Shown one piece after another: positions 8,575 through 33,799 of a stretch of 64,000 nt of DNA; within the stretch, counting starts at the first letter, position 1, and each line of letters begins with the position of its first letter. The notes under the pieces were generated by a model. The model was not told the DNA's origin. It saw only the letters and a list, made by a program, of their open reading frames with translations, and made no database searches. This DNA is from a virus. Made by a program: the position numbers and the translations under genes. The stretch is from positions 1 to 64,000 of IMG/VR virus record IMGVR_UViG_3300008108_000039; one strand, given 5' to 3'.

Positions 8575-9951
8575 TTATTTTTTCTTTGTACCATCATCAG
8601 TTACTGGGTCTTTAAATATTTCTCTACCTACTGTTACTTGTTTATCCATTAGACCTACTTCACCTACTCCTGAATCACCAACTGATGTTGTTAATTCAAC
8701 ATAGGTTGCTTTCATTGCAAATCCGAATGTATCTCGGGTATTGTATTGATAGGTAAACGAACCTATACCTAATACTACGTTTGTTGATGCAAAGCCTTTA
8801 GCTTCTAATCTAGCACAAATTTCATCTGCTCTATCAATTGTAATACTATCACCATAAATTGCTCCAATATGTGAATCCAATACTTTGTAACCTTGTTCGT
8901 TTACTGTTCCACCAAATACATCCCAAAGAAGTTCGATTACTCCTTTCCATTCCGGTTTATCTTCTGATGGAAAATCGTTTCTATTTAATGATTCATTAAT
9001 ACCTTGTATAGAATTAATACCACAAAGAATATCAACAGGGTCACCACTATCAGGTCTGATTACTAACTTACCATCACGTGCTAAGATTTCTTCTTTTAAT
9101 GTAACAACGTGTTCAGTACATACTTTCCATAAATCCCACGTATCTGATACTATCGATAAAATACCAGTTGGATATGTTTCGATTAATCTACGGAATGTTC
9201 CTATTTCATCATCAGATCCTCCTGCACACATTACTGAATGTTCTGTTGCATTAACACTACCGCCTATAAATCCAGTTTCACCATAATATTTTCTTGCTCC
9301 GTGTAATGTTGGTAATGAATCTGTTCCACTAAATGATGTTAAATGACCAAGACCTGAACTGATAACAGCGTCAACTGAATCCATACCTCTCATTGAGAAA
9401 TCATGTCCTTGCCAATCAATAAACCAACTCTTTTCAGTATCTGTTTTCTCTTGCCACTTAGTTAATACCTTACGATATGTATGAGCAATAGTTGCTGATG
9501 TCATTGGTTTCCATAATAAATTAGATAGAATTGTCTCTAAGTAATTTGTCACCCAATAAAAATCAGGATGTGTATTGTAAATTGTTAATACAGGTACTTT
9601 AATTGGAACAAGGTTTCCTTCTTTAATTCCTTTAACGTGAATTGGTAGATAACCTAAATCATGTAATTTTTCAAAATGACTAACGTCGTAGTCAGTATCT
9701 AAATACATAGATAATTCACGTTTCATCTCTCCACAAACTTCTTCTTTTGGTTTAGAGAAAAATTCATTTTGAAACGCATCGTGAATTTGTTTCATTACCA
9801 TTTGTTGTCCAAATGAAACAACTTTGTCACAACCTTTAGGAGCGTATTTGTTGCTTCTAGGAGTGAAATTAGAATAAACTAAAGTAGTGTTCTTCGGATA
9901 CTGCTGATGATGTCCAGTTTTGTATCCATCTGTTAATAATAAAGGGTTCAT
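8575..9951 (-). CDS. nicotinamide phosphoribosyltransferase-like protein (probable Namat of NARP1); C-terminus truncated/frameshifted
   Basis: LLTDGYK..H, HDFSMRG, ATEHSVM, VSDTWD, IRPDSGDP, IYGDSIT, TRDTFGFAMKAT; terminal segment GELQTIY..TLTEIRNRL sits in another frame at 8490-8579. Confidence 0.9.
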   Translation of the reverse strand: MNPLLLTDGYKTGHHQQYPKNTTLVYSNFTPRSNKYAPKGCDKVVSFGQQMVMKQIHDAFQNEFFSKPKEEVCGEMKRELSMYLDTDYDVSHFEKLHDLGYLPIHVKGIKEGNLVPIKVPVLTIYNTHPDFYWVTNYLETILSNLLWKPMTSATIAHTYRKVLTKWQEKTDTEKSWFIDWQGHDFSMRGMDSVDAVISSGLGHLTSFSGTDSLPTLHGARKYYGETGFIGGSVNATEHSVMCAGGSDDEIGTFRRLIETYPTGILSIVSDTWDLWKVCTEHVVTLKEEILARDGKLVIRPDSGDPVDILCGINSIQGINESLNRNDFPSEDKPEWKGVIELLWDVFGGTVNEQGYKVLDSHIGAIYGDSITIDRADEICARLEAKGFASTNVVLGIGSFTYQYNTRDTFGFAMKATYVELTTSVGDSGVGEVGLMDKQVTVGREIFKDPVTDDGTKKK

Positions 9952-19187: not shown

Positions 19188-19655
19188 TTATTTATTTTTT
19201 CCTGTATAGGTATTAGTTAAGGAGTGACAATTAGGGCAAAGGAATCTTAAATTAGATAATTTATAATTCCAAGCATTACCATCAATATGATCTAAATGTA
19301 AAGATAATTTTTTACCTATCCACTCTGAAATTCCACATTCGTTACATTCTTGCGGAATAAGATTTTCTTGTATAATACGTTTTCTTACTGAAGCACGAGT
19401 TGCATAATCCTCTATACTAATTATTCTTTTTTTGAAATTCTTTTTTAATCCTTTACCTGATTGGTTTGTATTGTAACAACCATATTCTATAGCGTATCTT
19501 TTAAAGGTATTAATATGCAATCCTAATCTAGAAGCAGCATGTGACATTGATTCACTACTATTACATATATCAATGAACTCTTGTTGGGGAATATCTTTGG
19601 GTTTAATTCCTGATTTTTCCCAGCTATTTGGTTTTTTAGTATTATATTGTTTCAT
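19188..19655 (-). CDS. freestanding HNH endonuclease
   Basis: CNECG...LHLDHIDG...NLRFLCPNCHSLT. Confidence 0.9.
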   Translation of the reverse strand: MKQYNTKKPNSWEKSGIKPKDIPQQEFIDICNSSESMSHAASRLGLHINTFKRYAIEYGCYNTNQSGKGLKKNFKKRIISIEDYATRASVRKRIIQENLIPQECNECGISEWIGKKLSLHLDHIDGNAWNYKLSNLRFLCPNCHSLTNTYTGKNK

Positions 19656-19699
19656 ATCAATAAATATTGGTAAATACTAGAAACCAATATTTTTTTGTG

Positions 19700-19981
19700 T
19701 GCCCCCAACGAGAATCGAACTCGTACTCGCTTACTAAGCGAACAGGATTTTCTTACTACTATAGCTTTCGCTACCTTTTCAGTTTGTAGTCTGGACTATA
19801 CCTTCACCTTATTTTTCAACTTAGGTGTTCCGTGTCTAGTCTCTACACCTTCCCTTTCGGGCTTGGCTCGGTATTACCATTTTAAAGGCTTCACCGAATT
19901 TACGGAATTTTACTCTTTAGATTTCTCTAAAGGCACTCAAATAACTAAGTCCTGCGTGTCTACCTATTCCACCACAGGGGC
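19700..19981 (-). tRNA. trnL: tRNA-Leu(UAA) interrupted by a group I intron (exons 19947..19981 and 19700..19751)
   Basis: joined exons give GCCCCTG acceptor, CAGGA-CTTAAAA-TCCTG anticodon arm, long variable arm, TTCGA T-loop. Confidence 0.9.
19752..19946 (-). mobile_element. ORF-less group I intron (IC3-like, 195 nt)
   Basis: inserted after U34; P1 ACUUA/UGAGU with U.G wobble; P AAATTCGGTGAA, Q AATACCGAGC, R GTAGAGACTAGA, S AAGGTATAGTCC; ends in G. Confidence 0.88.
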
Positions 19982-19984
19982 ATT

Positions 19985-20104
19985 TGCTGTCTTTCCAGCA
20001 GTCAGAAGAACTTGAAACTTACCTACGCACCAGTGAGGTATTCTTCATGTTTGTTCACAGAGCCTAAGCAGTGTCTAGTATGCTTTTGGTTGTCGTGCGT
20101 ATCA
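19985..20104 (-). ncRNA. pseudoknotted ncRNA motif, copy 1
   Basis: aligned with 23114..23233 with compensatory stem changes. Confidence 0.75.
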
Positions 20105-20196
20105 ATGATAGTTTATCCTTTTTACTCATCAAGTAATCCGTCCTATTGTAGGCACTTTGGCTCCTTAAAAACATACTACCAAACTAAACATCCTCG

Positions 20197-20353
20197 CTGT
20201 AAGGGAAGGATTCGAACCTTCATACGGTGATTCAATAAACGACATTTGTACTGCAGCTTGTGGTCAATCCTTATCGTTTATCTATTTCATTTTCCGCGCC
20301 CACGAGACGAGTGGGTGTGTATACCATGGTCTAGACTCTTTCACCACCTTACA
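20197..20353 (-). ncRNA. atypical tRNA-like RNA (expanded D-loop, ~70-nt variable region, loop TCGTCTC)
   Basis: TGTAAGG/CCTTACA acceptor, CCCAC/GTGGG arm, GAAGG-TTCGAAT-CCTTC T-arm. Confidence 0.7.
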
Positions 20354-20366
20354 ATTTTGTTTGATT

Positions 20367-20564
20367 TTATCTAGCTTCTTTATAAAGACGAATCAAAGTA
20401 AGTGCTATATCTACAGGAGCTAATATCCAACACATAATCACAAGACCTAAAGTATCAAGTCCTGGGCTAATGCCCAATCCTCCTGCCTGTACATCACGAT
20501 TCCATCTACGAAAAGTCATTATTAAACAATAAGCTAAACATATTAAATAATAGGTCCAAAACAT
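20367..20564 (-). CDS. small two-TM membrane protein
   Basis: 65 aa hydrophobic. Confidence 0.6.
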   Translation of the reverse strand: MFWTYYLICLAYCLIMTFRRWNRDVQAGGLGISPGLDTLGLVIMCWILAPVDIALTLIRLYKEAR

Positions 20565-20576
20565 AATTTTTATTTT

Positions 20577-21035
20577 TTATTTTACAAGAGCATCAGCAGC
20601 ATACGTCATCATTGGACATTCACCTTTATGTCTTACTTTATATCCCATACCTGTTACAATACCTACAGCACTTGCTAATGCTTGATTTGAACGGTATTTT
20701 GGATCAGGATTAAGATCAATATCAATCCAAGTTGCTACTATACTTGTTTCATTTTTAATTGCTTCTGCCACTTCAACAGAAAACCATACTTCATTTAATA
20801 AACGAACTGTATTTTCTTTTTCACGTAATGTATTAAATCTTGAATATAATACATGAGCTCCTTTTCCTGGGCGTGAAAGTCCAATTACAATAGCATATAT
20901 TGTTTCGTTTTTTCTGTTTTGTGAATCACATCCAATAAGTATTTCTACATTATCGTGTTGTAATATGTATTCTTTTATATATTGTATTAGCTCAATTTTT
21001 TGATTTGAAGCTAATGTTTTAAACATTTTTTCCAT
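20577..21035 (-). CDS. RNase H-fold protein (YkuK/DUF458-like)
   Basis: IGCDSQ, RLLNEVWFSVEVA, IDIDLN, YAAD. Confidence 0.8.
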   Translation of the reverse strand: MEKMFKTLASNQKIELIQYIKEYILQHDNVEILIGCDSQNRKNETIYAIVIGLSRPGKGAHVLYSRFNTLREKENTVRLLNEVWFSVEVAEAIKNETSIVATWIDIDLNPDPKYRSNQALASAVGIVTGMGYKVRHKGECPMMTYAADALVK

Positions 21036-21051
21036 AATTTAAAATTTAATA

Positions 21052-21119
21052 ACTGAGAAAATTTAACTGAGTTTGTTTTGATATTTGCAGAATCGAAGTA
21101 ACTCAACTATAACTACAGC
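21052..21119 (-). ncRNA. Y-RNA-like element 1
   Basis: stem-TAG-stem-GTTACTTCG...TTCT-stem consensus shared with 4 other elements; next to Ro60 gene. Confidence 0.65.
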
Positions 21120-21131
21120 ATTAATAAATTG

Positions 21132-21330
21132 ACCGAGATTTCTGGGGTGAGTCGTTCGGTAGCTCCGAACAGCACCAGGGAATTTATACTCGTCGTCAAG
21201 TGTTTTTTAAGCACCAGTACACGTCCTCTACCCTGATAACTCGAGGGAAGTTGGTAGATTGTATTTAAAATGAGCGGCATGTAGCCGCGGTATTTAATTA
21301 CGAAGTACCTCACCTAATCCTTACTACGGT
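21132..21330 (-). ncRNA. Y-RNA-like element 2 (large insert)
   Basis: ACCG-TAG...GGTGAG-GTACTTCG...CTCACC...TCT-CGGT. Confidence 0.65.
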
Positions 21331-21367
21331 AATATTTTAATCAAAGATCTATTTGTTATATATAAAT

Positions 21368-21397
21368 ATACGGGCGGCGTTTTAAACCGCCCATATA
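21368..21397 (-). terminator. hairpin terminator after Ro60 gene
   Basis: GGGCGG/CCGCCC stem followed by AT tract. Confidence 0.55.
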
Positions 21398-22939
21398 TTA
21401 TATTTCAATTGCTTCAATAGCTTTAATCAGTGCTTTTGGATCAATTTCTACTTTTTTAATCAGTTCATAAATGTCTGATGAATATCCGTAAATACCATAA
21501 ACTTTACTTCCTGGTTTAAACATTGTAGTTCCATATCCGCAAATATCTACTGAATATACATGCATATTTGCATATGCTGATTTTTCTATGTGATCTTTAC
21601 CTTGCATATCTGAAATTATAAACACACGATCATAGTTTTTTCCTATAGTTCTGAATATGCTTTCAAATGCTGTTCCATATCCTACTGATCCTTGTTGACC
21701 TAAGAATTGATTCTTAAGTGTATTTACACTATCAAGTGGGTTAAACTTAATTTGAGTAGTTCTATCAGCAAAATGATAAACATCGGCATTAATACCCTTA
21801 GCTAATGTAGCTGCAATTAATGCTGCTTTTGCAATAGCGGATTCTGAACCAGCATTTTTATTAGCTAATCTAATTCGTGAGGTCATTGAACCTGAACTAT
21901 CAAATATTACTGCTGTTTTTCCATGTGGAAATAATTCAGTTAAGTTTGGAATAGCTAACTCATAAGCTGTATTTAAAGCATTTATAAATGGTCTTGCTCC
22001 ACTTGCTCCAAATTCATCTAACATTATTTCTAATGCTAAATCAATTTGGTGAGGAAATACTAATGATTGCTTAATTAGAGCTTTATCAGTTAATAATTCA
22101 CAAGCACCTTTAATAACTTCGGATTTAGCTCCTGTTTTTAAGATGTTTCTTAAGTTACGTAGTAACGCTAAGTAACCAATCTTACGAGTTTCAATCAATT
22201 CAGCAAAGTTATCTTCTTTAGCTTCATTTAATACTGCTACAGCTTGTTCAGCAGTAATTTTTCCTGCTTTTACTTTAGCTGCTACTTCTTGACCTGCTTT
22301 AGTATTTTTATCTTCTACTGTGTTAAATTGCTTTAACTCACCTTTCATCAATTTAGCAAACACTGACTTCATCTTTTCAGAAGGTTTTGGGTGTACTAAA
22401 TTAATAATATCAACTAAAGATAAATCACGATTTTTAGCTTGATATTTTGCTAATTCATATTCATCAGCTGCTTCTAAAGCCGCTTTAAATCCTTTTTTGA
22501 TAGCGTTTGATAATTGTTTACCTGGGTTTCTAGCTTGATAGCATGCTGCTATTTCTAGCATATCATCTAAACGATAGATGACACCACCAGCATTTGCTTT
22601 TCTTTCTCTTTTAGAGAAGAATCTAGCACCTAAACTATCACCAGCTAATACTTTAGCTAATTCTACAGCACCAAAGTGTGTAACAGTTCTTTGACCCATA
22701 ACACTACGAGCATATACCATTGCTTTTGCAGCGAATACTTTATCAGTTTTAGCTACTTCAGCAATAACATTAGCAAAACGTTGTTCGCGTTCACCTAGTT
22801 TTTCATAATACTTATTATCCAAACCTGTAGCTAAAATTGCTACTAGTTCAGTTTTTGAATCATATTGATAACCATTTCCACCTTGGTGGTTTACAACTGT
22901 TTGTACAGTTGGTTTTGCTTTTGCATTAAAACGTGCCAT
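21398..22939 (-). CDS. rsr: Ro60/TROVE-domain RNA-binding protein with C-terminal vWA domain (Rsr-like)
   Basis: NHQGG, YELAKY, DIINLVHPKP, ALLRNLRNI, MIDAS DSSGSM, GYGT, ISDMQ. Confidence 0.92.
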   Translation of the reverse strand: MARFNAKAKPTVQTVVNHQGGNGYQYDSKTELVAILATGLDNKYYEKLGEREQRFANVIAEVAKTDKVFAAKAMVYARSVMGQRTVTHFGAVELAKVLAGDSLGARFFSKRERKANAGGVIYRLDDMLEIAACYQARNPGKQLSNAIKKGFKAALEAADEYELAKYQAKNRDLSLVDIINLVHPKPSEKMKSVFAKLMKGELKQFNTVEDKNTKAGQEVAAKVKAGKITAEQAVAVLNEAKEDNFAELIETRKIGYLALLRNLRNILKTGAKSEVIKGACELLTDKALIKQSLVFPHQIDLALEIMLDEFGASGARPFINALNTAYELAIPNLTELFPHGKTAVIFDSSGSMTSRIRLANKNAGSESAIAKAALIAATLAKGINADVYHFADRTTQIKFNPLDSVNTLKNQFLGQQGSVGYGTAFESIFRTIGKNYDRVFIISDMQGKDHIEKSAYANMHVYSVDICGYGTTMFKPGSKVYGIYGYSSDIYELIKKVEIDPKALIKAIEAIEI

Positions 22940-23026
22940 TTTACTACTAATTTAATTGTTAGAGAATATTAATTGCTTTTTACTTAATAAATGTAAGACT
23001 ATCTTTTTTGACAACCAAACTTTTTG

Positions 23027-23108
23027 TGCCCAGAGAGAGACTCGAACTCTCACGCCTTTCGGCACCAGTTTCTAAAACTGGCGTGTACTGCCATTTCACC
23101 ACCTGGGC
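23027..23108 (-). tRNA. tRNA-Leu(UAG)
   Basis: cloverleaf, CCAGT-TTTAGAA-ACTGG, long variable arm. Confidence 0.92.
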
Positions 23109-23113
23109 ATAGA

Positions 23114-23233
23114 GTGGGCCTTTCCCCACGGTCAAACAAGCTTGAAATTTACCTACGCACAGTGAGGTACTTGTTGTGATCATTCACAGAGCCTAACCCT
23201 TTACTAGTATAGTTTCGGTTGTCGTGCGTGTCA
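23114..23233 (-). ncRNA. pseudoknotted ncRNA motif, copy 2
   Basis: see copy 1. Confidence 0.75.
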
Positions 23234-23238
23234 TGCTG

Positions 23239-23334
23239 TAGTCAGGACAGGATTCGAACCTGCAGTGTAGGACTTATTTTTTTTTGCCTCTATCCGTTAC
23301 GGAACACCCTTTAGCCAATTTGGGACACCTGACT
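23239..23334 (-). ncRNA. tRNA-like element with AGTCAGG/CCTGACT acceptor and no canonical anticodon arm
   Basis: D-arm CCC..GGG, GCAGG-TTCGAAT-CCTGT T-arm. Confidence 0.65.
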
Positions 23335-23337
23335 GTT

Positions 23338-23583
23338 TTATAAGCCATCTTCCCAACGCCCTAAAACTAGTTGAGGAATTATTCCGGTATTCTCTTTCTC
23401 AAATAAACTTTCATCAAATTTAAAATCAACAACTATTTTTTCATCGCTTACCCAATTTTTACCAAAATCTTCAATAGTTAATTCGGCACCATATTTAACT
23501 AACAATGCTTTTAACTCATTATAAAATAATTGTTGCTTTTCAACAGTTGAATTATATTGCTTTTCCTTGTTCATATTATACAA
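23338..23583 (-). CDS. hypothetical protein
   Basis: 81 aa AT-rich ORF inside RNA island. Confidence 0.6.
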   Translation of the reverse strand: MYNMNKEKQYNSTVEKQQLFYNELKALLVKYGAELTIEDFGKNWVSDEKIVVDFKFDESLFEKENTGIIPQLVLGRWEDGL

Positions 23584-23625
23584 ATTAGTGCTATTATAGC
23601 CATTGTTTTTAGTTTTTATTTTTCG

Positions 23626-23728
23626 TAGTCTTTATATAAACGTAGGGTTGCAACCCCTAACTGCCTAAGTGTCATACACCTCCTGCTTGGACATTTATAT
23701 TGCGTCTAACCAATTTCGCCACCTGACT
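23626..23728 (-). ncRNA. second AGTCAGG tRNA-like element, T-arm missing
   Basis: AGTCAGG-TG-GCG-AAATTGGTTAGA-CGC 5' half; ends ...GACTAC without T-arm. Confidence 0.5.
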
Positions 23729-23735
23729 ATCTTAG

Positions 23736-23807
23736 AAGCCTCGGAGGAACTCGAATCCCCAACGTTCTCCTTAGAAGGGAGACATTCTTCCATTGAATTA
23801 CGAGGCC
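23736..23807 (-). tRNA. tRNA-Arg(UCU)
   Basis: TCTCC-CTTCTAA-GGAGA. Confidence 0.9.
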
Positions 23808-23812
23808 AAATG

Positions 23813-23884
23813 AGCAGGTAGTCAGAATCGAACTGACATCTCGAGTTTGGAAGACTAGAGCACTAACCGTTGTGCTATACCTGC
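23813..23884 (-). tRNA. tRNA-Gly(UCC)
   Basis: CTAGT-CTTCCAA-ACTCG, U73. Confidence 0.88.
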
Positions 23885-23972
23885 AATTCAAAGACAAACC
23901 TCGGCCTTGTATACCGACTTGGAAACCCTTTAGCTAGCCACTAACACTGATTGTAGTCTATTTGTCTTTTTG

Positions 23973-24056
23973 AGCCGAGCAAGAGATTCGAACTCTCAGT
24001 GGACTTTCGTCGCCTGCTTACAAGGCAGGTGCAATCAACCATTATGCGAACTCGGC
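23973..24056 (-). tRNA. tRNA-Thr(UGU) with long variable arm
   Basis: GCCGAGT acceptor, CCTGC-CTTGTAA-GCAGG, GAC-GAAA-GTC extra arm. Confidence 0.85.
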
Positions 24057-24064
24057 ATTATTTG

Positions 24065-24133
24065 TAGCGTATACTAGTGTCGATCTAGTCTAAAATCGGA
24101 TATGAGCCAATTTTGGTCGCCGGACCATACGCC
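24065..24133 (-). tRNA. atypical tRNA with CAU anticodon
   Basis: GGCGTAT/ATACGCT acceptor, 4-nt D loop, 8-bp anticodon stem, T-loop ATCGACA. Confidence 0.55.
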
Positions 24134-24137
24134 AAGT

Positions 24138-24274
24138 AAAACACTGCTGGGATACCCGTCTCGTCCCAATCTTAACGGCTTTATTGAAGTTTTATGATGC
24201 ATCGGCCGAGGGTGATACTGCTTTTATTCTCATTCGGTTTGTCGACAACCAGCCTGAGAGTCAGTCAGTGTTTT
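24138..24274 (-). ncRNA. structured spacer RNA with predicted pseudoknots
   Basis: closing helix AAACACTG/CAGTGTTT; CCGT/ACGG crossed by GGGA/TCCC. Confidence 0.5.
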
Positions 24275-24275
24275 G

Positions 24276-24349
24276 TTGCGGTGGGCTAGATTCGAACTAG
24301 CGATTTTGACCTTATGAGAGTCACGAGATGACCACTTCTCTACCCCGCA
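24276..24349 (-). tRNA. tRNA-Met(CAU), initiator-like body
   Basis: TGCGGGG acceptor, TGACT-CTCATAA-GGTCA. Confidence 0.8.
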
Positions 24350-24360
24350 ATATAAGTTTG

Positions 24361-24433
24361 TAGTGATGACGAGACTCGAACTCGTAACCTCGATGGTATA
24401 AGCATCTTGCGCTGACCATTGCGCCACATCACC
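24361..24433 (-). tRNA. tRNA-Ile(UAU)
   Basis: AGATG-CTTATAC-CATCG, A73. Confidence 0.85.
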
Positions 24434-24516
24434 AAATTTAAATAACTACTTACTCTATATAACCACCATCCACGTCATGCGCTGGTTGAGCTCAGCCAGC
24501 AAGTAGTTTGTTTAAG

Positions 24517-24590
24517 CCGGAACAACGGGATTCGAACCCGTACCGCACACCGTGACAAGGTGGCATTGTAAACCATTCAACCATGCTCCG
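24517..24590 (-). tRNA. tRNA-Asp(GUC)
   Basis: CACC-TTGTCAC-GGTG, G73. Confidence 0.88.
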
Positions 24591-24699
24591 GAATAAAGTA
24601 AGAAAGTTCATTACGTCTAACAAACCAGTGTTTCTACTTTGGCTCAATCGAATTATGATCACTTCACGATGTGTTGCATTTCGTCTACTTCTTACTTTG

Positions 24700-24771
24700 T
24701 ACTCCCGACGAGAATCGAACTCGCATTTTCAGATCGAAAATCTGACATCCTAACCATTAGATGACAGGAGC
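24700..24771 (-). tRNA. tRNA-Glu(UUC)
   Basis: TCAGA-TTTTCGA-TCTGA. Confidence 0.9.
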
Positions 24772-24775
24772 GTAA

Positions 24776-24884
24776 TGATGAAAGAATATTGGTACAGTTT
24801 CAGCCGGAATTGAACCGGAAAGTTTAAACCAAAATTAAATGCCCACCATGGGCGCGAAGTAACTGTGGTCCTTACTATTCATCA
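24776..24884 (-). ncRNA. Y-RNA-like element 3 with degenerate tRNA-Gln-like insert
   Basis: TGATGAA-TAG..ACAGTTACTTCG..AACTGT..TTCT-TTCATCA; D-, UUG anticodon- and T-like hairpins inside. Confidence 0.7.
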
Positions 24885-24887
24885 ATG

Positions 24888-24973
24888 TGGGAGTAACAGG
24901 AATCGAACCTGTACCTCTGCAGGCTGCGGTTTTACAGACCGTGGTGGCTAAAGCCAGTATCCACCTTACTCCC
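24888..24973 (-). tRNA. tRNA-Tyr(GUA)
   Basis: CGGT-CTGTAAA-ACCG, long variable arm. Confidence 0.88.
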
Positions 24974-24976
24974 AAT

Positions 24977-25108
24977 TTGTAGAAGAATGCTTAGAAAAGT
25001 TTGTTTTGGTTGTAAATGCGGGACTCAAACCCACGCGTTTTTCTTGGAAGGAAAATGATCTATCTCTGATCTAATTTACGAAGTAACTTTTCAATTTACT
25101 ATCTACAA
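24977..25108 (-). ncRNA. Y-RNA-like element 4 containing a complete tRNA-Gly(UCC)-like cloverleaf (25007..25080)
   Basis: TTGTAGA-TAG..GAAAAGTTACTTCG-[GTAAAT..GATC/GATC..TTTTC-CTTCCAA-GAAAA..GTGGG/CCCGC..ATTTAC-AA-CCA]-AACTTTTC..TTCT-TCTACAA. Confidence 0.72.
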
Positions 25109-25114
25109 TAATTT

Positions 25115-25192
25115 TGCTGAGAATGACTAGAAGAGTTGTTTTTCAATTTAGATTTACAAGTCTACGAAGTAACTCTATCTATAACTACAGCA
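25115..25192 (-). ncRNA. Y-RNA-like element 5
   Basis: TGCTG-TAG-TTATAGATAGAGTTACTTCG..AACTCTTCTAG..TTCT-CAGCA. Confidence 0.7.
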
Positions 25193-25200
25193 TTTGTATT

Positions 25201-25259
25201 TTCAAAGATCTTTTATTCTTATTTTTCTTATACATTAAATATACAATAAAAATTTTGCC
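25201..25259 (-). promoter_or_regulatory. internal promoter (GGCAAAAT..TATATT) plus boxA-like GATCTTTGAA for second half of RNA island
   Basis: motif at 25238-25259, boxA-like at 25201-25210. Confidence 0.6.
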
Positions 25260-25275
25260 AAAAGATATTTTTTTG

Positions 25276-25347
25276 CGCTTTCGGAGAATTACGATATCTC
25301 GGCCTCGAATTTAACAAATTCTTGCTCTGCCTCTGAGCTACGAAAGC
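25276..25347 (-). tRNA. tRNA-Asn(GUU)
   Basis: GAAT-TTGTTAA-ATTC; atypical T-loop. Confidence 0.8.
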
Positions 25348-25352
25348 GAATG

Positions 25353-25425
25353 TGGAGATACCAAGACTCGAACTTGGATTACCTGAGTATCAGTCAGGCG
25401 TGATAAACCATTCTACTATATCTCC
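25353..25425 (-). tRNA. tRNA-Ile(GAU)
   Basis: CCTGA-CTGATAC-TCAGG. Confidence 0.9.
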
Positions 25426-25486
25426 ATGGGGTCCGATACTAGCTTTCCATCACACTCGGACCAAGATGTGCGTCATACTAGGTTTG

Positions 25487-25572
25487 CGGAGAGCATTGTA
25501 TCGAAACAAATACCGTGTTAGGGTACCACTCGCTTAGCAGGCGGTGACAGCAACCTTACTGTTTTACTCTCC
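25487..25572 (-). tRNA. tRNA-Ser(GCU)
   Basis: GGAGAG acceptor, CGC-CTGCTAA-GCG, long variable arm, G73. Confidence 0.8.
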
Positions 25573-25634
25573 ATTTTGGCAGTTTTTAATTCATATCGAG
25601 GGAAGGAGATACCAGCTCCAAAACTCGGAAGGTG

Positions 25635-25706
25635 GGTGTAAGAACGGTATCGAACCGTCTTCCCTGGCTCCACAAACCAGTGCATCACCTTAATGCTTCA
25701 AACACC
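25635..25706 (-). tRNA. tRNA-His(GUG)
   Basis: G-1/C73, CTGGT-TTGTGGA-GCCAG. Confidence 0.85.
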
Positions 25707-25777
25707 ATGTAAAGAGAATCAGAACACACAATACGGATGAATTCTATGTTCCCGGACATTGCTGGTAATTCTCTCTG

Positions 25778-25861
25778 TGGAGAGTGACGGACTCGAACCC
25801 CCACGCCGTGTTACCGACTTCACTGTTTTCAAGACAGCTAACTACTCCTTTAGGACTCTCC
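25778..25861 (-). tRNA. tRNA-Ser(UGA), atypical D-arm
   Basis: GCTGT-CTTGAAA-ACAGT, long variable arm. Confidence 0.75.
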
Positions 25862-25946
25862 TTATTAAACATATCACCTGTTCTACGCACATTTTTACTT
25901 TAGTTTATATCAGCTAAAGTGCCGTGCCAGCTACGAACTATGTTTG

Positions 25947-26017
25947 ATGCCACAGAAGGGGTCGAACCTTCAACAAGAGAGCCAAAATCTCTTATGTTAC
26001 CATTACACTATGTGGCA
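25947..26017 (-). tRNA. tRNA-Gln(UUG)
   Basis: U1-A72, AGAGA-TTTTGGC-TCTCT. Confidence 0.9.
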
Positions 26018-26025
26018 GTGTGTTG

Positions 26026-26097
26026 AGCAGCAAAAGAATTTCGAAATCTCAACCTTCACATTGGCAATGTGACGCTCTGCCTTTGAGCTATTGCTGC
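26026..26097 (-). tRNA. tRNA-Gly(GCC)
   Basis: TCACA-TTGCCAA-TGTGA. Confidence 0.88.
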
Positions 26098-26103
26098 TTA
26101 TTG

Positions 26104-26175
26104 TAGAAGATGGGAATTTTGAAATCCCGACCCTCGCCATGTAAGGGCGATGCTCTGCCTCTGAGCTAATCTTCT
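26104..26175 (-). tRNA. tRNA-Val(UAC)
   Basis: TCGCC-CTTACAT-GGCGA. Confidence 0.88.
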
Positions 26176-26258
26176 AGATGTCAGCTGTTTAAGGTACAGC
26201 TGCGACTCAAACCTGAAGGTTAGTTATATATTGGAAACCTACCTACAATCTACCGGCG

Positions 26259-26331
26259 TGGAGAAGGTGGAACTCGAATCCACAACCTCATGCTTGCAAA
26301 GCACGTGCTCATCCACTAGAGCTTCATCCCC
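26259..26331 (-). tRNA. tRNA-Ala(UGC)
   Basis: G3.U70, CGTGC-TTTGCAA-GCATG. Confidence 0.9.
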
Positions 26332-26337
26332 ATTGTG

Positions 26338-26412
26338 TCGGGTAGAGAGGACTCGAACCTCCACGATGCCTTCGCCCCAAACGAAGTGACCTAGCCATTG
26401 GTCCACTACCCG
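26338..26412 (-). tRNA. tRNA-Pro(UGG)
   Basis: CGGGTAG acceptor, CTTCG-TTTGGGG-CGAAG. Confidence 0.9.
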
Positions 26413-26428
26413 AAATATTATTCTACCG

Positions 26429-26498
26429 AGGTTAAGGTGAGAATTGAACTCACTCCGTAGATTTTGCAGATCTACCGGCCGCCACGACCAACTTAACC
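26429..26498 (-). tRNA. tRNA-Cys(GCA)
   Basis: TAGAT-CTGCAAA-ATCTA, U73. Confidence 0.82.
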
Positions 26499-26505
26499 TT
26501 ATTCG

Positions 26506-26578
26506 TACTCCCGGACTGACTCGAACAGTCATTACTAGATCCGTAGTCTAGAGTTCTAATCCATTGAACTACAGGAGC
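26506..26578 (-). tRNA. tRNA-Arg(ACG)
   Basis: CTAGA-CTACGGA-TCTAG. Confidence 0.9.
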
Positions 26579-26588
26579 ATATAACTTG

Positions 26589-26660
26589 CACGCACGTAAG
26601 GACTCGAACCTTCATTTTCGCTTTTGGAGAGCGACGTTCTACCAATTGAACTACGCGCGC
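26589..26660 (-). tRNA. tRNA-Trp(CCA)
   Basis: TCGCT-CTCCAAA-AGCGA. Confidence 0.9.
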
Positions 26661-26675
26661 GTTTTTATCAATATG

Positions 26676-27113
26676 TCAAAGATCCTTTAGATAATCTTGT
26701 ATAGTTATATTTTGTTCTTTTTCTAAGTAGTGAAACTCAGAATGACAATTTCTACACAAAGTAATACATTTTTCTATTTCATTCCAAAATTTTTCTTTAC
26801 CTAAATAATAATTACTACTAATATCAAACTTTTTGTTTTTAGGATCTAAATGATGAAAATCTAAAATATACCATCTTTTATCTCCACATTTAGAACAAGT
26901 ACATGTTTTTTTATATTCAACAAAAATGTTTTTCTTTTTCTTAGTTACACTTTTATTTTTTTCTAATTGTATTTCTCTGTTTTCGTAATACCAATCTAAA
27001 TGTTGTTTTTTAGTACATTCACGACAGGCTTTTTGTTTACCATCACTTTGTATTTTATTATTATTAAATTCACTCAGTTCTTTTTGTTGTTTGCATTTAT
27101 TACATATTTTCAT
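26676..27113 (-). CDS. HNH endonuclease inserted in tRNA array
   Basis: CNKC..CREC Zn site; CSKCG..LDFHHLDP..KC..LCRNCH. Confidence 0.88.
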   Translation of the reverse strand: MKICNKCKQQKELSEFNNNKIQSDGKQKACRECTKKQHLDWYYENREIQLEKNKSVTKKKKNIFVEYKKTCTCSKCGDKRWYILDFHHLDPKNKKFDISSNYYLGKEKFWNEIEKCITLCRNCHSEFHYLEKEQNITIQDYLKDL

Positions 27114-27176
27114 AATTATTGTTTATAATAAATATATAGCTTTTAATAAATATTACAAATTAAAATACATTTTTTG

Positions 27177-27248
27177 TGCCCCCTACCGGTAACGATCCGA
27201 TCCTGGTATATTAAAAGTATACTGCTTACACCTGTTTGCTAAGAGGGC
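27177..27248 (-). tRNA. tRNA-Lys(UUU)
   Basis: GTATA-CTTTTAA-TATAC; atypical T-loop. Confidence 0.82.
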
Positions 27249-27279
27249 ATTTATTTTGTTCCCTCTTGCTTCAGAGGGA

Positions 27280-27315
27280 CTACTTATGTTTTCGTTTAGT
27301 TGTCTTTCGTTTCAT
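27280..27315 (-). CDS. putative 11-aa Lys/Arg-rich mini-ORF (MKRKTTKRKHK)
   Basis: ATG in A-rich context, TAG, then TCCCTCT/AGAGGGA hairpin, directly upstream of tRNA-Lys. Confidence 0.4.
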   Translation of the reverse strand: MKRKTTKRKHK

Positions 27316-27331
27316 TTTCTTATAGTTTGTG

Positions 27332-27404
27332 TGGTACCCCTCGGTTCCGACCCGAGTCCTGAAGATTTTCAGTCTTCCGCTTCTACCAAGTTAGCTTGAG
27401 CACC
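27332..27404 (-). tRNA. tRNA-Phe(GAA), first gene of the array
   Basis: GAAGA-CTGAAAA-TCTTC. Confidence 0.88.
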
Positions 27405-33005: not shown

Positions 33006-33799
33006 TTTAATTTATTATATATTTCTTTGATACCTTGTTCTAATCCAATATAAGATAATGAGTATTTAGAAACATATTCACTCTTATAATCATTACCATT
33101 GTTTCCTAATATAATATCAACTTTATAGTCATCTAATTCATTTATTATATTAGCTATTTCTAATAAAGTATAATTTTTATCATATGAACAATAATCTTCT
33201 ATATGTAATTGATATTTGTTTGTTGTTATATAATGTTTTATTAATGTAATAAAATCCTTCATATAAAAAAAAGTCATTGCTTTATTTTCATAAACCTGTA
33301 AAGATTCTTTATTAATATATCTTTTAATATTAGACTTAATAAATCTAGTATCTAATTCATTCTCATCAAATAACCCAAATATTATTATATTAAAAAAATT
33401 AGGTGTTGATATTACTGAGGTTCTAATTATTGATTTACTAAGGCTATATGGAGTAGAAATAAAGGTAGATGGGGTGTAAGTAAAATGATTAAGTTCAACT
33501 CCTGAACCAAAATTTATAAATTTATCATAATTAGTATGTCTAAATTTATATAAATTAAAGTATATTTTTGTATTAATATCTTTTACTTCCTCACTATCCT
33601 CTTTTAATCGATGACCTCCTACAATGGCACAATGTAATACAACGTCAAAATATTTATTTTTAAAAAATTCTTCCATAGCATTAACATCAATCAAATCAAA
33701 ATCAGCTCTTGTAAGTGCTATTACTTCGTATTTATCTTTTAAAGCATTATACAATGATTTACCTATATAACCATTAGCTCCTGTAATTAATATTTTCAT
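33002..33799 (-). CDS. NAD-dependent epimerase/ketoreductase
   Basis: ITGANGYIG, YSLSK (YxxxK). Confidence 0.88.
   Translation of the reverse strand: MKILITGANGYIGKSLYNALKDKYEVIALTRADFDLIDVNAMEEFFKNKYFDVVLHCAIVGGHRLKEDSEEVKDINTKIYFNLYKFRHTNYDKFINFGSGVELNHFTYTPSTFISTPYSLSKSIIRTSVISTPNFFNIIIFGLFDENELDTRFIKSNIKRYINKESLQVYENKAMTFFYMKDFITLIKHYITTNKYQLHIEDYCSYDKNYTLLEIANIINELDDYKVDIILGNNGNDYKSEYVSKYSLSYIGLEQGIKEIYNKLK

Follow-up and report, generated by a model that had tools for sequence, protein, structure and literature searches.

A duplicated pseudoknotted RNA beside two phage tRNA-Leu genes belongs to a covarying phage RNA family and may act as a dimerising module

The window analysed here is a stretch of 64,000 nucleotides (nt), the first 64 kb of the 167-kb virus record IMGVR_UViG_3300008108_000039, which has an estimated completeness of 99% and is the size of phage T4. 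Public sequencing runs containing the window stretch come from lake and freshwater samples. The minus strand carries all of the tRNA genes (24 or more, at 23026-27404) and likewise holds, in minus-strand sense, two copies of a structured RNA element first noticed from the sequence alone. The copies and the two tRNA-Leu genes directly downstream of them are listed below in window coordinates.

19985-20104, minus strand: copy 1 of the element, with the core at 20001-20104 and a 3' hairpin at 19985-20000; scores 118 bits with covariance model R1 and 105 bits with covariance model R2
23114-23233, minus strand: copy 2 of the element, with the core at 23131-23233 and a 3' hairpin at 23114-23130; scores 117.6 bits with R1 and 105.9 bits with R2
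23026-23108, minus strand: tRNA-Leu(UAG), 5 nt downstream of copy 2; called by ARAGORN and by the Rfam tRNA model (53 bits)
19699-19981, minus strand: tRNA-Leu(UAA), 3 nt downstream of copy 1; exon 1 at 19947-19981, exon 2 at 19699-19751
19752-19946, minus strand: group I intron of 195 nt within tRNA-Leu(UAA); Rfam RF00028, 75 bits, E 2e-18

The sequence-only reading had placed two copies of a pseudoknotted RNA at 19985-20104 and 23114-23233, each ending within about 5 nt of the 5' end of a tRNA-Leu gene, and both were found there, copy 2 ending at 23114 before a tRNA that begins at 23108 and copy 1 at 19985 before one that begins at 19981. An alignment of the copies spans 142 columns with 83% identity, and copy 1 was the sole match when copy 2 was used as a query against the whole 167-kb genome (E 6e-18, 80% identity). 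They share the invariant blocks and differ in the stems as had been described, including a helix which reads GAAGAA/UUCUUC in one copy and AACAAG/CUUGUU in the other, and the pairing of ACGCAC with GUGCGU was also found in the copies. The gene for tRNA-Leu(UAA) was missed by ARAGORN because it is interrupted by the group I intron, which splits the anticodon loop between U34 and A35. When the exons were joined in silico (19981-19947 and 19751-19699), ARAGORN called the product as tRNA-Leu(taa).

Judged by covariance-model scores, the two copies are members of a widespread phage-borne RNA family that is absent from Rfam. A search of the window with Rfam 15, at the gathering cut-off and at E<=10, detected nothing beyond tRNAs and the group I intron and left the element without a match, and ten loci with the major variant of the family gave only matches to tRNA and transfer-messenger RNA (tmRNA). 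No described motif thus matched in cmscan, which upholds the novelty of the element, and no account of the family was found in Rfam 15 or in the literature searched. Against GenBank phages, blastn with the window region returned tRNA and intron matches only, and blastn with a scaffold-embedded variant (see below) returned no match.

Exact patterns drawn from the conserved blocks of the window retrieved from IMG/VR a single outside homologue (L095), a member located on a 9-kb phage contig with terminators on both sides. The same patterns found none in metagenome contigs and gave 35 chance matches in bacterial genomes. These early scans failed because the window copies represent a minor sequence variant, in which GACAACC occurs with CUCUGUGAA, the majority having GGCAACC with CAAUGCGAA. 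A pattern without the central block yielded two more sequence types, and a pattern based on the hairpin P_a and pseudoknot 1 yielded 102 IMG/VR loci. Covariance model R1, which was built from five sequences, scores 93 of these 102 loci, 70 of them distinct, in the range of 30-118 bits, and the hosts of the element are uncultured phages.

A member is also present, at about 33052-33154 of PP754928.1, in phage005b of Porphyromonas gingivalis, a cultivable host whose strain ATCC 49417 carries phage005. It scores 70 bits with R2, lies between the major capsid and adaptor genes, and has a 10-bp closing stem and a U tract but no tRNA nearby. A 39-aa "hypothetical protein" of this phage (L292:1483-1602, corresponding to PP754928.1 33075-33194) overlaps the family member, and this annotation is probably a mis-annotated RNA gene. 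In 0.7 Mb of other phage DNA, comprising 26 relatives that encode a TROVE-domain protein, the T4 rnaC/rnaD locus and unrelated loci, the window copies were the sole matches to R2. No member was found with R2 in 151 Bacteroidales genomes or with the pattern in 401 Bacteroidota genomes, each set being a sample searched without a positive control.

The element has a size of about 105-120 nt and consists of a core of about 104 nt followed by the 3' hairpin. The helices of the predicted fold, as they occur in the two copies, are as follows.

P_b, minus strand: 20041-20046 with 20005-20010 in copy 1 and 23170-23175 with 23135-23140 in copy 2
P_a hairpin, minus strand: 20036-20040 with 20020-20024 in copy 1 and 23165-23169 with 23150-23154 in copy 2
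Pseudoknot 1 of copy 1, minus strand: 20095-20100 (ACGCAC) with 20025-20030 (GUGCGU) in the P_a loop
Pseudoknot 1 of copy 2, minus strand: 23224-23229 with 23155-23160
P_d, 3 bp, minus strand: 20091-20093 with 20057-20059 in copy 1 and 23220-23222 with 23186-23188 in copy 2
P_c hairpin, enclosed by P_d, minus strand: 20063-20089 in copy 1 and 23192-23218 in copy 2
Probable pseudoknot 2, minus strand: 20053-20056 (GAAC) with 20014-20018 in copy 1 and 23182-23185 with 23144-23148 in copy 2

Among 70 distinct sequences, standard pairs fill 96.7% of the pair cells, compared with 15-44% in slid controls in which the partner strand was moved by 1-3 columns, and compensatory change is seen at 15 of the 24 pairs. 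The homologues thus do covary, and the duplicated structured element in the window is confirmed as real and beyond chance, its structure being kept, with compensatory changes, across the 70 relatives. The proposal of a pseudoknotted, structured and functional RNA is therefore well supported, also by the three compensatory versions in which pseudoknot 1 occurs, i.e. ACGCAC/GUGCGU, ACGUGC/GCACGU (in L095) and ACGAGC/GCUCGU (in the Porphyromonas phage). Pseudoknot 1 is 100% paired in 68 sequences. In P_b, the helix noted above as differing between the copies, all six pairs covary, with four to five pair types at each position. P_d is 99.5% paired and all three of its pairs covary (ACA/UGU, GCA/UGC, AGG/CCU); as this helix is absent from the search model, its support is independent of the model.

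A mutual-information scan pointed to a further pairing, pseudoknot 2, in which the GAAC linker that follows P_d is matched to the initial bases of the internal loop separating P_a from P_b. This pairing is formed in 89% of the cases, compared with 5-53% in slid controls, and covaries even though it is absent from the search model. Its key pair is C-G in 44 sequences, U-A in 21 and U-G in two, and the window holds both main forms, with C-G in copy 1 and U-A in copy 2. The existence of pseudoknot 2 is graded as probable. A T-loop or k-turn was considered for the internal loop but gave way to pseudoknot 2 after the mutual-information analysis, and no covariation could be seen by eye for a pairing between the 5' UGAC and this loop. 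One block of the element may resemble the GTPase-centre sequence of 23S rRNA, a likeness given no weight here. In the fold that covariation supports, P_b is stacked on the P_a hairpin, which is locked at its terminal loop by pseudoknot 1, and a second lock probably joins the P_a/P_b internal loop to the GAAC linker.

The apex of P_c is variable in sequence and nearly always carries a palindrome with the same centre. Among 41 distinct apical regions, 34 contain a perfect palindrome of 6-12 nt, a feature seen in 21% of shuffles when counted anywhere in the region, and most of the remaining apical regions have a 4-nt palindrome. Eight central tetramers are represented, namely UGCA, CUAG, GCGC, UCGA, CAUG, GUAC, CCGG and CGCG. 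The palindrome analysis located those of the window copies as follows.

20075-20078, minus strand: apical palindrome of copy 1, CUAG
23202-23209, minus strand: apical palindrome of copy 2, 8 nt, UACUAGUA

Since the hairpin itself needs no self-complementary loop, a kissing contact would be expected between two molecules, and the palindromic loops suggest kissing-loop dimers as the simplest reading. The predicted loop duplexes have energies of -9.0 kcal/mol for copy 2 with itself, -6.3 kcal/mol for copy 1 with copy 2 and -3.6 kcal/mol for copy 1 with itself.

A survey of 77 distinct genomic contexts separated the family into three groups. About 36 contexts, those of the window copies among them, have an accessory 3' module, directly after which a tRNA-Leu is found in about nine and a tRNA-like scaffold in about 17. 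This module was present on 31 of 69 distinct 3' flanks, with at least 10 different stems and a conserved loop, GAA(A/UA)GR. The scaffold combines a GUCAGG/CCUGAC acceptor with a T arm and a D arm of class II type, and lacks an anticodon arm. In about 22 contexts the core is embedded in such a scaffold between the D and T arms, where the anticodon arm would be (e.g. L200:4264-4414). In about 10 contexts the element stands alone and has both a closing stem and a U tract. The corresponding features in the window are listed below.

19985-20004 in copy 1 and 23114-23134 in copy 2, minus strand: accessory module, UGAC followed by a hairpin whose loop is GAAAGA
23238-23334, minus strand: tRNA-like scaffold RNA directly upstream of copy 2, read from the sequence

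The association with tRNA-Leu noted in the window hence extends to one subfamily (about nine of the 77 contexts) and fails elsewhere, where the element is scaffold-embedded or stands alone. A pure role in tRNA-Leu processing is unlikely, because other members sit embedded or alone and one of them has no tRNAs near it. The element is missing from close relatives of the window phage. In L153, which has a TROVE protein 85% identical to that of the window, the gap between tRNA-Arg(UCU) and tRNA-Leu(UAG) is 4 nt and a small open reading frame (ORF) occupies the site of copy 1. Its absence from close relatives identifies the element as a mobile module, which the window phage either gained twice or gained once and then duplicated. 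No conserved neighbouring protein was found within 4 kb, the top family occurring in only 12 of 94 loci. From the range of its contexts, the element is best described as a portable module rather than a tRNA-Leu-specific device.

The window stretch was found in freshwater RNA libraries of several studies. Two such libraries contained contigs that run from tRNA-Leu(UAA) through copy 1, to 20567 and 20676, respectively, with no differences from the window. Both contigs start with 11 nt of exon 2 of tRNA-Leu(UAA), joined exactly to exon 1 at 19946. This junction is what splicing of the intron would give, which hints that the contigs derive from RNA and that copy 1 and the tRNA are co-transcribed, although the junction may instead stem from an intron-less DNA allele.

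On a modest balance of probability, the element is a stable, trans-acting and dimerising RNA module which is excised from the tRNA transcript by tRNA-processing enzymes. The copies would be transcribed within the precursor of the tRNA array. The 3' side of the RNA would be released by an RNase P cut at the 5' end of the downstream tRNA-Leu, at 19982 for copy 1 and 23109 for copy 2, and the 5' side by 3' maturation of the tRNA-like RNA that precedes it. Stability would come from the knot and the 3' hairpin, and two molecules would join via the palindromic loop, either copy 2 with copy 2 or copy 1 with copy 2. The dimer would then work in trans as a binding platform or as a decoy for a host or phage factor.

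Several observations weigh against the excised dimerising module. The copy 1 palindrome is only 4 nt long, and its predicted self-pairing is weak. P_a and most of pseudoknot 1 appear invariant partly since the pattern used to collect the sequences fixed them. Single-sequence folding of both strands gave energies no better than those of shuffles (z 0.12 and -0.13), under a model incapable of pseudoknots. The contigs are blind to RNA ends, starts and levels, and RNA libraries may contain DNA. Finally, the recurrent site of the 3'-hairpin subfamily is just upstream of class II tRNA-type 5' ends, which may point to a cis role.

This last point belongs to the alternative that survives best, namely that the element is a cis-acting leader or insulator of tRNA-Leu maturation whose knot and UGAC hairpin, 3-7 nt upstream, shape RNase P cleavage or shield the precursor. 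Such a role would agree with the position of the 3'-hairpin subfamily directly before tRNA-Leu (about nine contexts) or before the class II tRNA-like scaffold (about 17), and with an accessory hairpin loop that is conserved over at least 10 stems; both window copies fit. It is nevertheless unlikely, as the element is embedded in about 22 contexts, stands alone in about 10, one of them in a Porphyromonas phage with no nearby tRNA, and as close relatives mature both tRNA-Leu genes without it.

It is very unlikely that the element is a ligand-binding aptamer serving as a riboswitch-like sensor. Its compact double pseudoknot and near-invariant junction nucleotides are as in many aptamers, but an expression platform and a constant downstream ORF are both lacking, the neighbours being tRNAs, tRNA-like RNAs, terminators and varied ORFs. 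Frequent embedding in a tRNA-like scaffold also speaks against a sensor, as does the lack of an Rfam riboswitch match at E<=10.

A new self-cleaving ribozyme that parts the neighbouring RNAs of the array is highly improbable. Small ribozymes typically have double pseudoknots and conserved cores, the RNAs on either side of the element have to be separated, and minimal hepatitis delta virus (HDV)-like ribozymes occur beside phage tRNAs. HDV-like (theta) ribozymes, which share with the element a double-pseudoknot core and an occurrence in phage tRNA regions, have a nested double pseudoknot with the strand order P1-P2-P3-P3'-P1'-P4-P2'. The helix strand order of the element, as read from its sequence, is unlike this: pseudoknot 1 has its 3' strand within the P_a loop, and no cleavage-site logic is apparent. 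The Rfam HDV model had no match on the element at E<=10, and no other Rfam ribozyme matched. In addition, there would be nothing to cut away in the case of stand-alone members equipped with a closing stem and terminator, and embedded members would cleave their own scaffold. The functions that the sequence-only reading had proposed, i.e. a ribozyme, a processing element or a ligand-binding RNA, thus each went without support, with no Rfam ribozyme or riboswitch match at E<=10.

The fourth alternative is a Y-RNA-like partner of a phage Ro60 (TROVE) protein, and it draws on the TROVE-domain ORF which separates the two copies and shares their strand. Genes for bacterial and phage Y RNAs lie no more than a few kb from that for Ro60, and a GNCGAAN0-1G motif near the 5' end is a feature of Y RNA and YrlA (PMC4201824); in the window, the TROVE ORF is within about 4 kb of the element. 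YrlA and Y RNA, which are bound by Ro60 or Rsr, resemble the element in being modular, with a tRNA-like domain and a second domain, and in lying beside a TROVE gene (PMC4201824). Such a partnership is scarcely credible, however, as no TROVE homologue is present in a carrier genome of 162 kb that is 95% complete, the syntenic relative L181 has the element without a TROVE gene, none of the 26 TROVE loci (at <=85% protein identity) carries the element by nhmmer and covariance-model search, the GNCGAAN0-1G motif is missing from the alignment, which has ACGCACGRCAACC as its 5' region, and the Y RNA models of Rfam gave no match. The phage family thus differs from Y RNAs in not co-occurring with TROVE and in being without the Ro60-binding motif, and also in that its tRNA-like part is a separate scaffold. 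The position of the TROVE gene between the copies looks coincidental, the copies flanking it because it sits between the two tRNA-Leu genes. The support for all four alternatives (cis leader, aptamer, ribozyme and Y RNA) goes no further than position or general resemblance.

The TROVE-domain (Ro60-like) ORF itself, at 21398-22939 on the minus strand, encodes 513 aa (Pfam E 2e-9) with a C-terminal part that by eye resembles a von Willebrand factor A domain. Homologues with 26-85% identity are present in 26 IMG/VR phage loci, usually right after tRNA-Leu(UAG).

Returning to the dimerising module excised from the tRNA transcript, several known systems offer comparisons. The rnaC and rnaD genes of T4 (species 1 and 2; NC_000866 70908-71171) likewise specify small stable RNAs of unknown function in a T4-type tRNA array, which are released with the tRNAs. 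Model R2 found no match in the T4 locus (L116) at E<=1. To our knowledge, no architecture that combines a pseudoknot with a palindrome has been described for rnaC or rnaD.

The kissing loop of the HIV-1 dimerisation initiation site, which has the loop sequence GUGCAC, is similar in that a self-complementary hexamer in the loop varies between lineages yet remains palindromic, and GUGCAC is found in both systems. They differ in that the element is a small RNA of bacteriophages and not a viral genome, and in that its dimerisation is predicted from sequence. GOLLD and ROOL RNAs often adjoin tRNA genes and form homo-oligomers. They are 5-8 times larger than the element, which had no Rfam match and for which only a dimer is implied. 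GOLLD and ROOL are phage- and prophage-associated non-coding RNAs for which cryo-electron microscopy shows RNA-only complexes (10.1101/2024.12.08.627333).

The tRNA-like domain of tmRNA and the tRNA scaffolds used in the laboratory recall the roughly 22 contexts in which the element replaces the anticodon arm and the acceptor, D and T arms are kept. In contrast, the two copies in the window stand free, flanked by a scaffold RNA and a genuine tRNA, and have no reading frame and no tag. Full-length tmRNA genes are present in or beside the tRNA arrays of relatives and other carriers (L154:8805-9198, L158:2049-2430 and L214:942-1349), and no tmRNA gene was found in the window.

Other tRNA-like sequences lie close to the copies. 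Upstream of copy 2, the GUCAGG scaffold region (23238-23730, minus strand) contains two 5' halves (23730-23700 and 23334-23305) and one 3' half (23262-23238), with an 81-aa ORF (23338-23583) between the two 5' halves. Many community contigs link 23262 to about 23709 via other middles, so the scaffold bears different cargo in other phages. Near copy 1, a tRNA-like RNA of about 150 nt (20190-20345, minus strand) has the acceptor UGUAAGG/CCUUACA, a class II D arm and a T arm, together with a strictly conserved anticodon-like hairpin, the loop of which is UCGUCUC, and about 75 nt at the position of the variable arm. It is called by neither ARAGORN nor Rfam and is kept in the relatives L152 (3622-3782, directly before tRNA-Leu) and L153 (at about 8845-9005).

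Of the remaining features in the region, an HNH endonuclease ORF (19188-19655) is located just downstream of tRNA-Leu(UAA), and the group I intron of that gene is 92% identical to an intron elsewhere in L152. An ORF at 20577-21035 on the minus strand matches the Pfam family RNaseH_like (PF04308, E 4e-19) and is conserved beside the tRNA-Leu/TROVE region in relatives; in L181 the RNaseH_like ORF directly follows tRNA-Leu(UAG). The short motif AGUUACUUCG is repeated on the minus strand in tRNA-array spacers and downstream of TROVE (at about 21095, 21305, 24860, 25080 and 25160) and also occurs within a scaffold RNA of L183. This motif may represent another RNA family or a Ro60 partner. Rfam also identified a tRNA at 27332-27404 on the minus strand (41.6 bits) which is not on the ARAGORN list.

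For fifty years, phage tRNA arrays have been known to hold stable RNAs of unknown purpose, such as rnaC and rnaD of T4. With this family, such RNAs gain a defined and strongly covarying fold, a dimerisation signature, a large family and portability. The function is directly testable, as one member sits in a phage of the cultivable P. gingivalis. A bolder and fairly doubtful possibility, which takes the sequence evidence further, is that the family constitutes a new class of phage RNA forming symmetric dimers, either free or on a tRNA-shaped carrier, that act as a decoy or inhibitor of a dimeric host factor, e.g. a tRNA-directed defence nuclease or an RNA-processing enzyme, or else that the element is itself a new catalytic RNA. 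If binding of a host factor or catalysis proved true, the family would represent a new RNA class in phage-host biology and would provide a compact natural dimerising module for RNA engineering.

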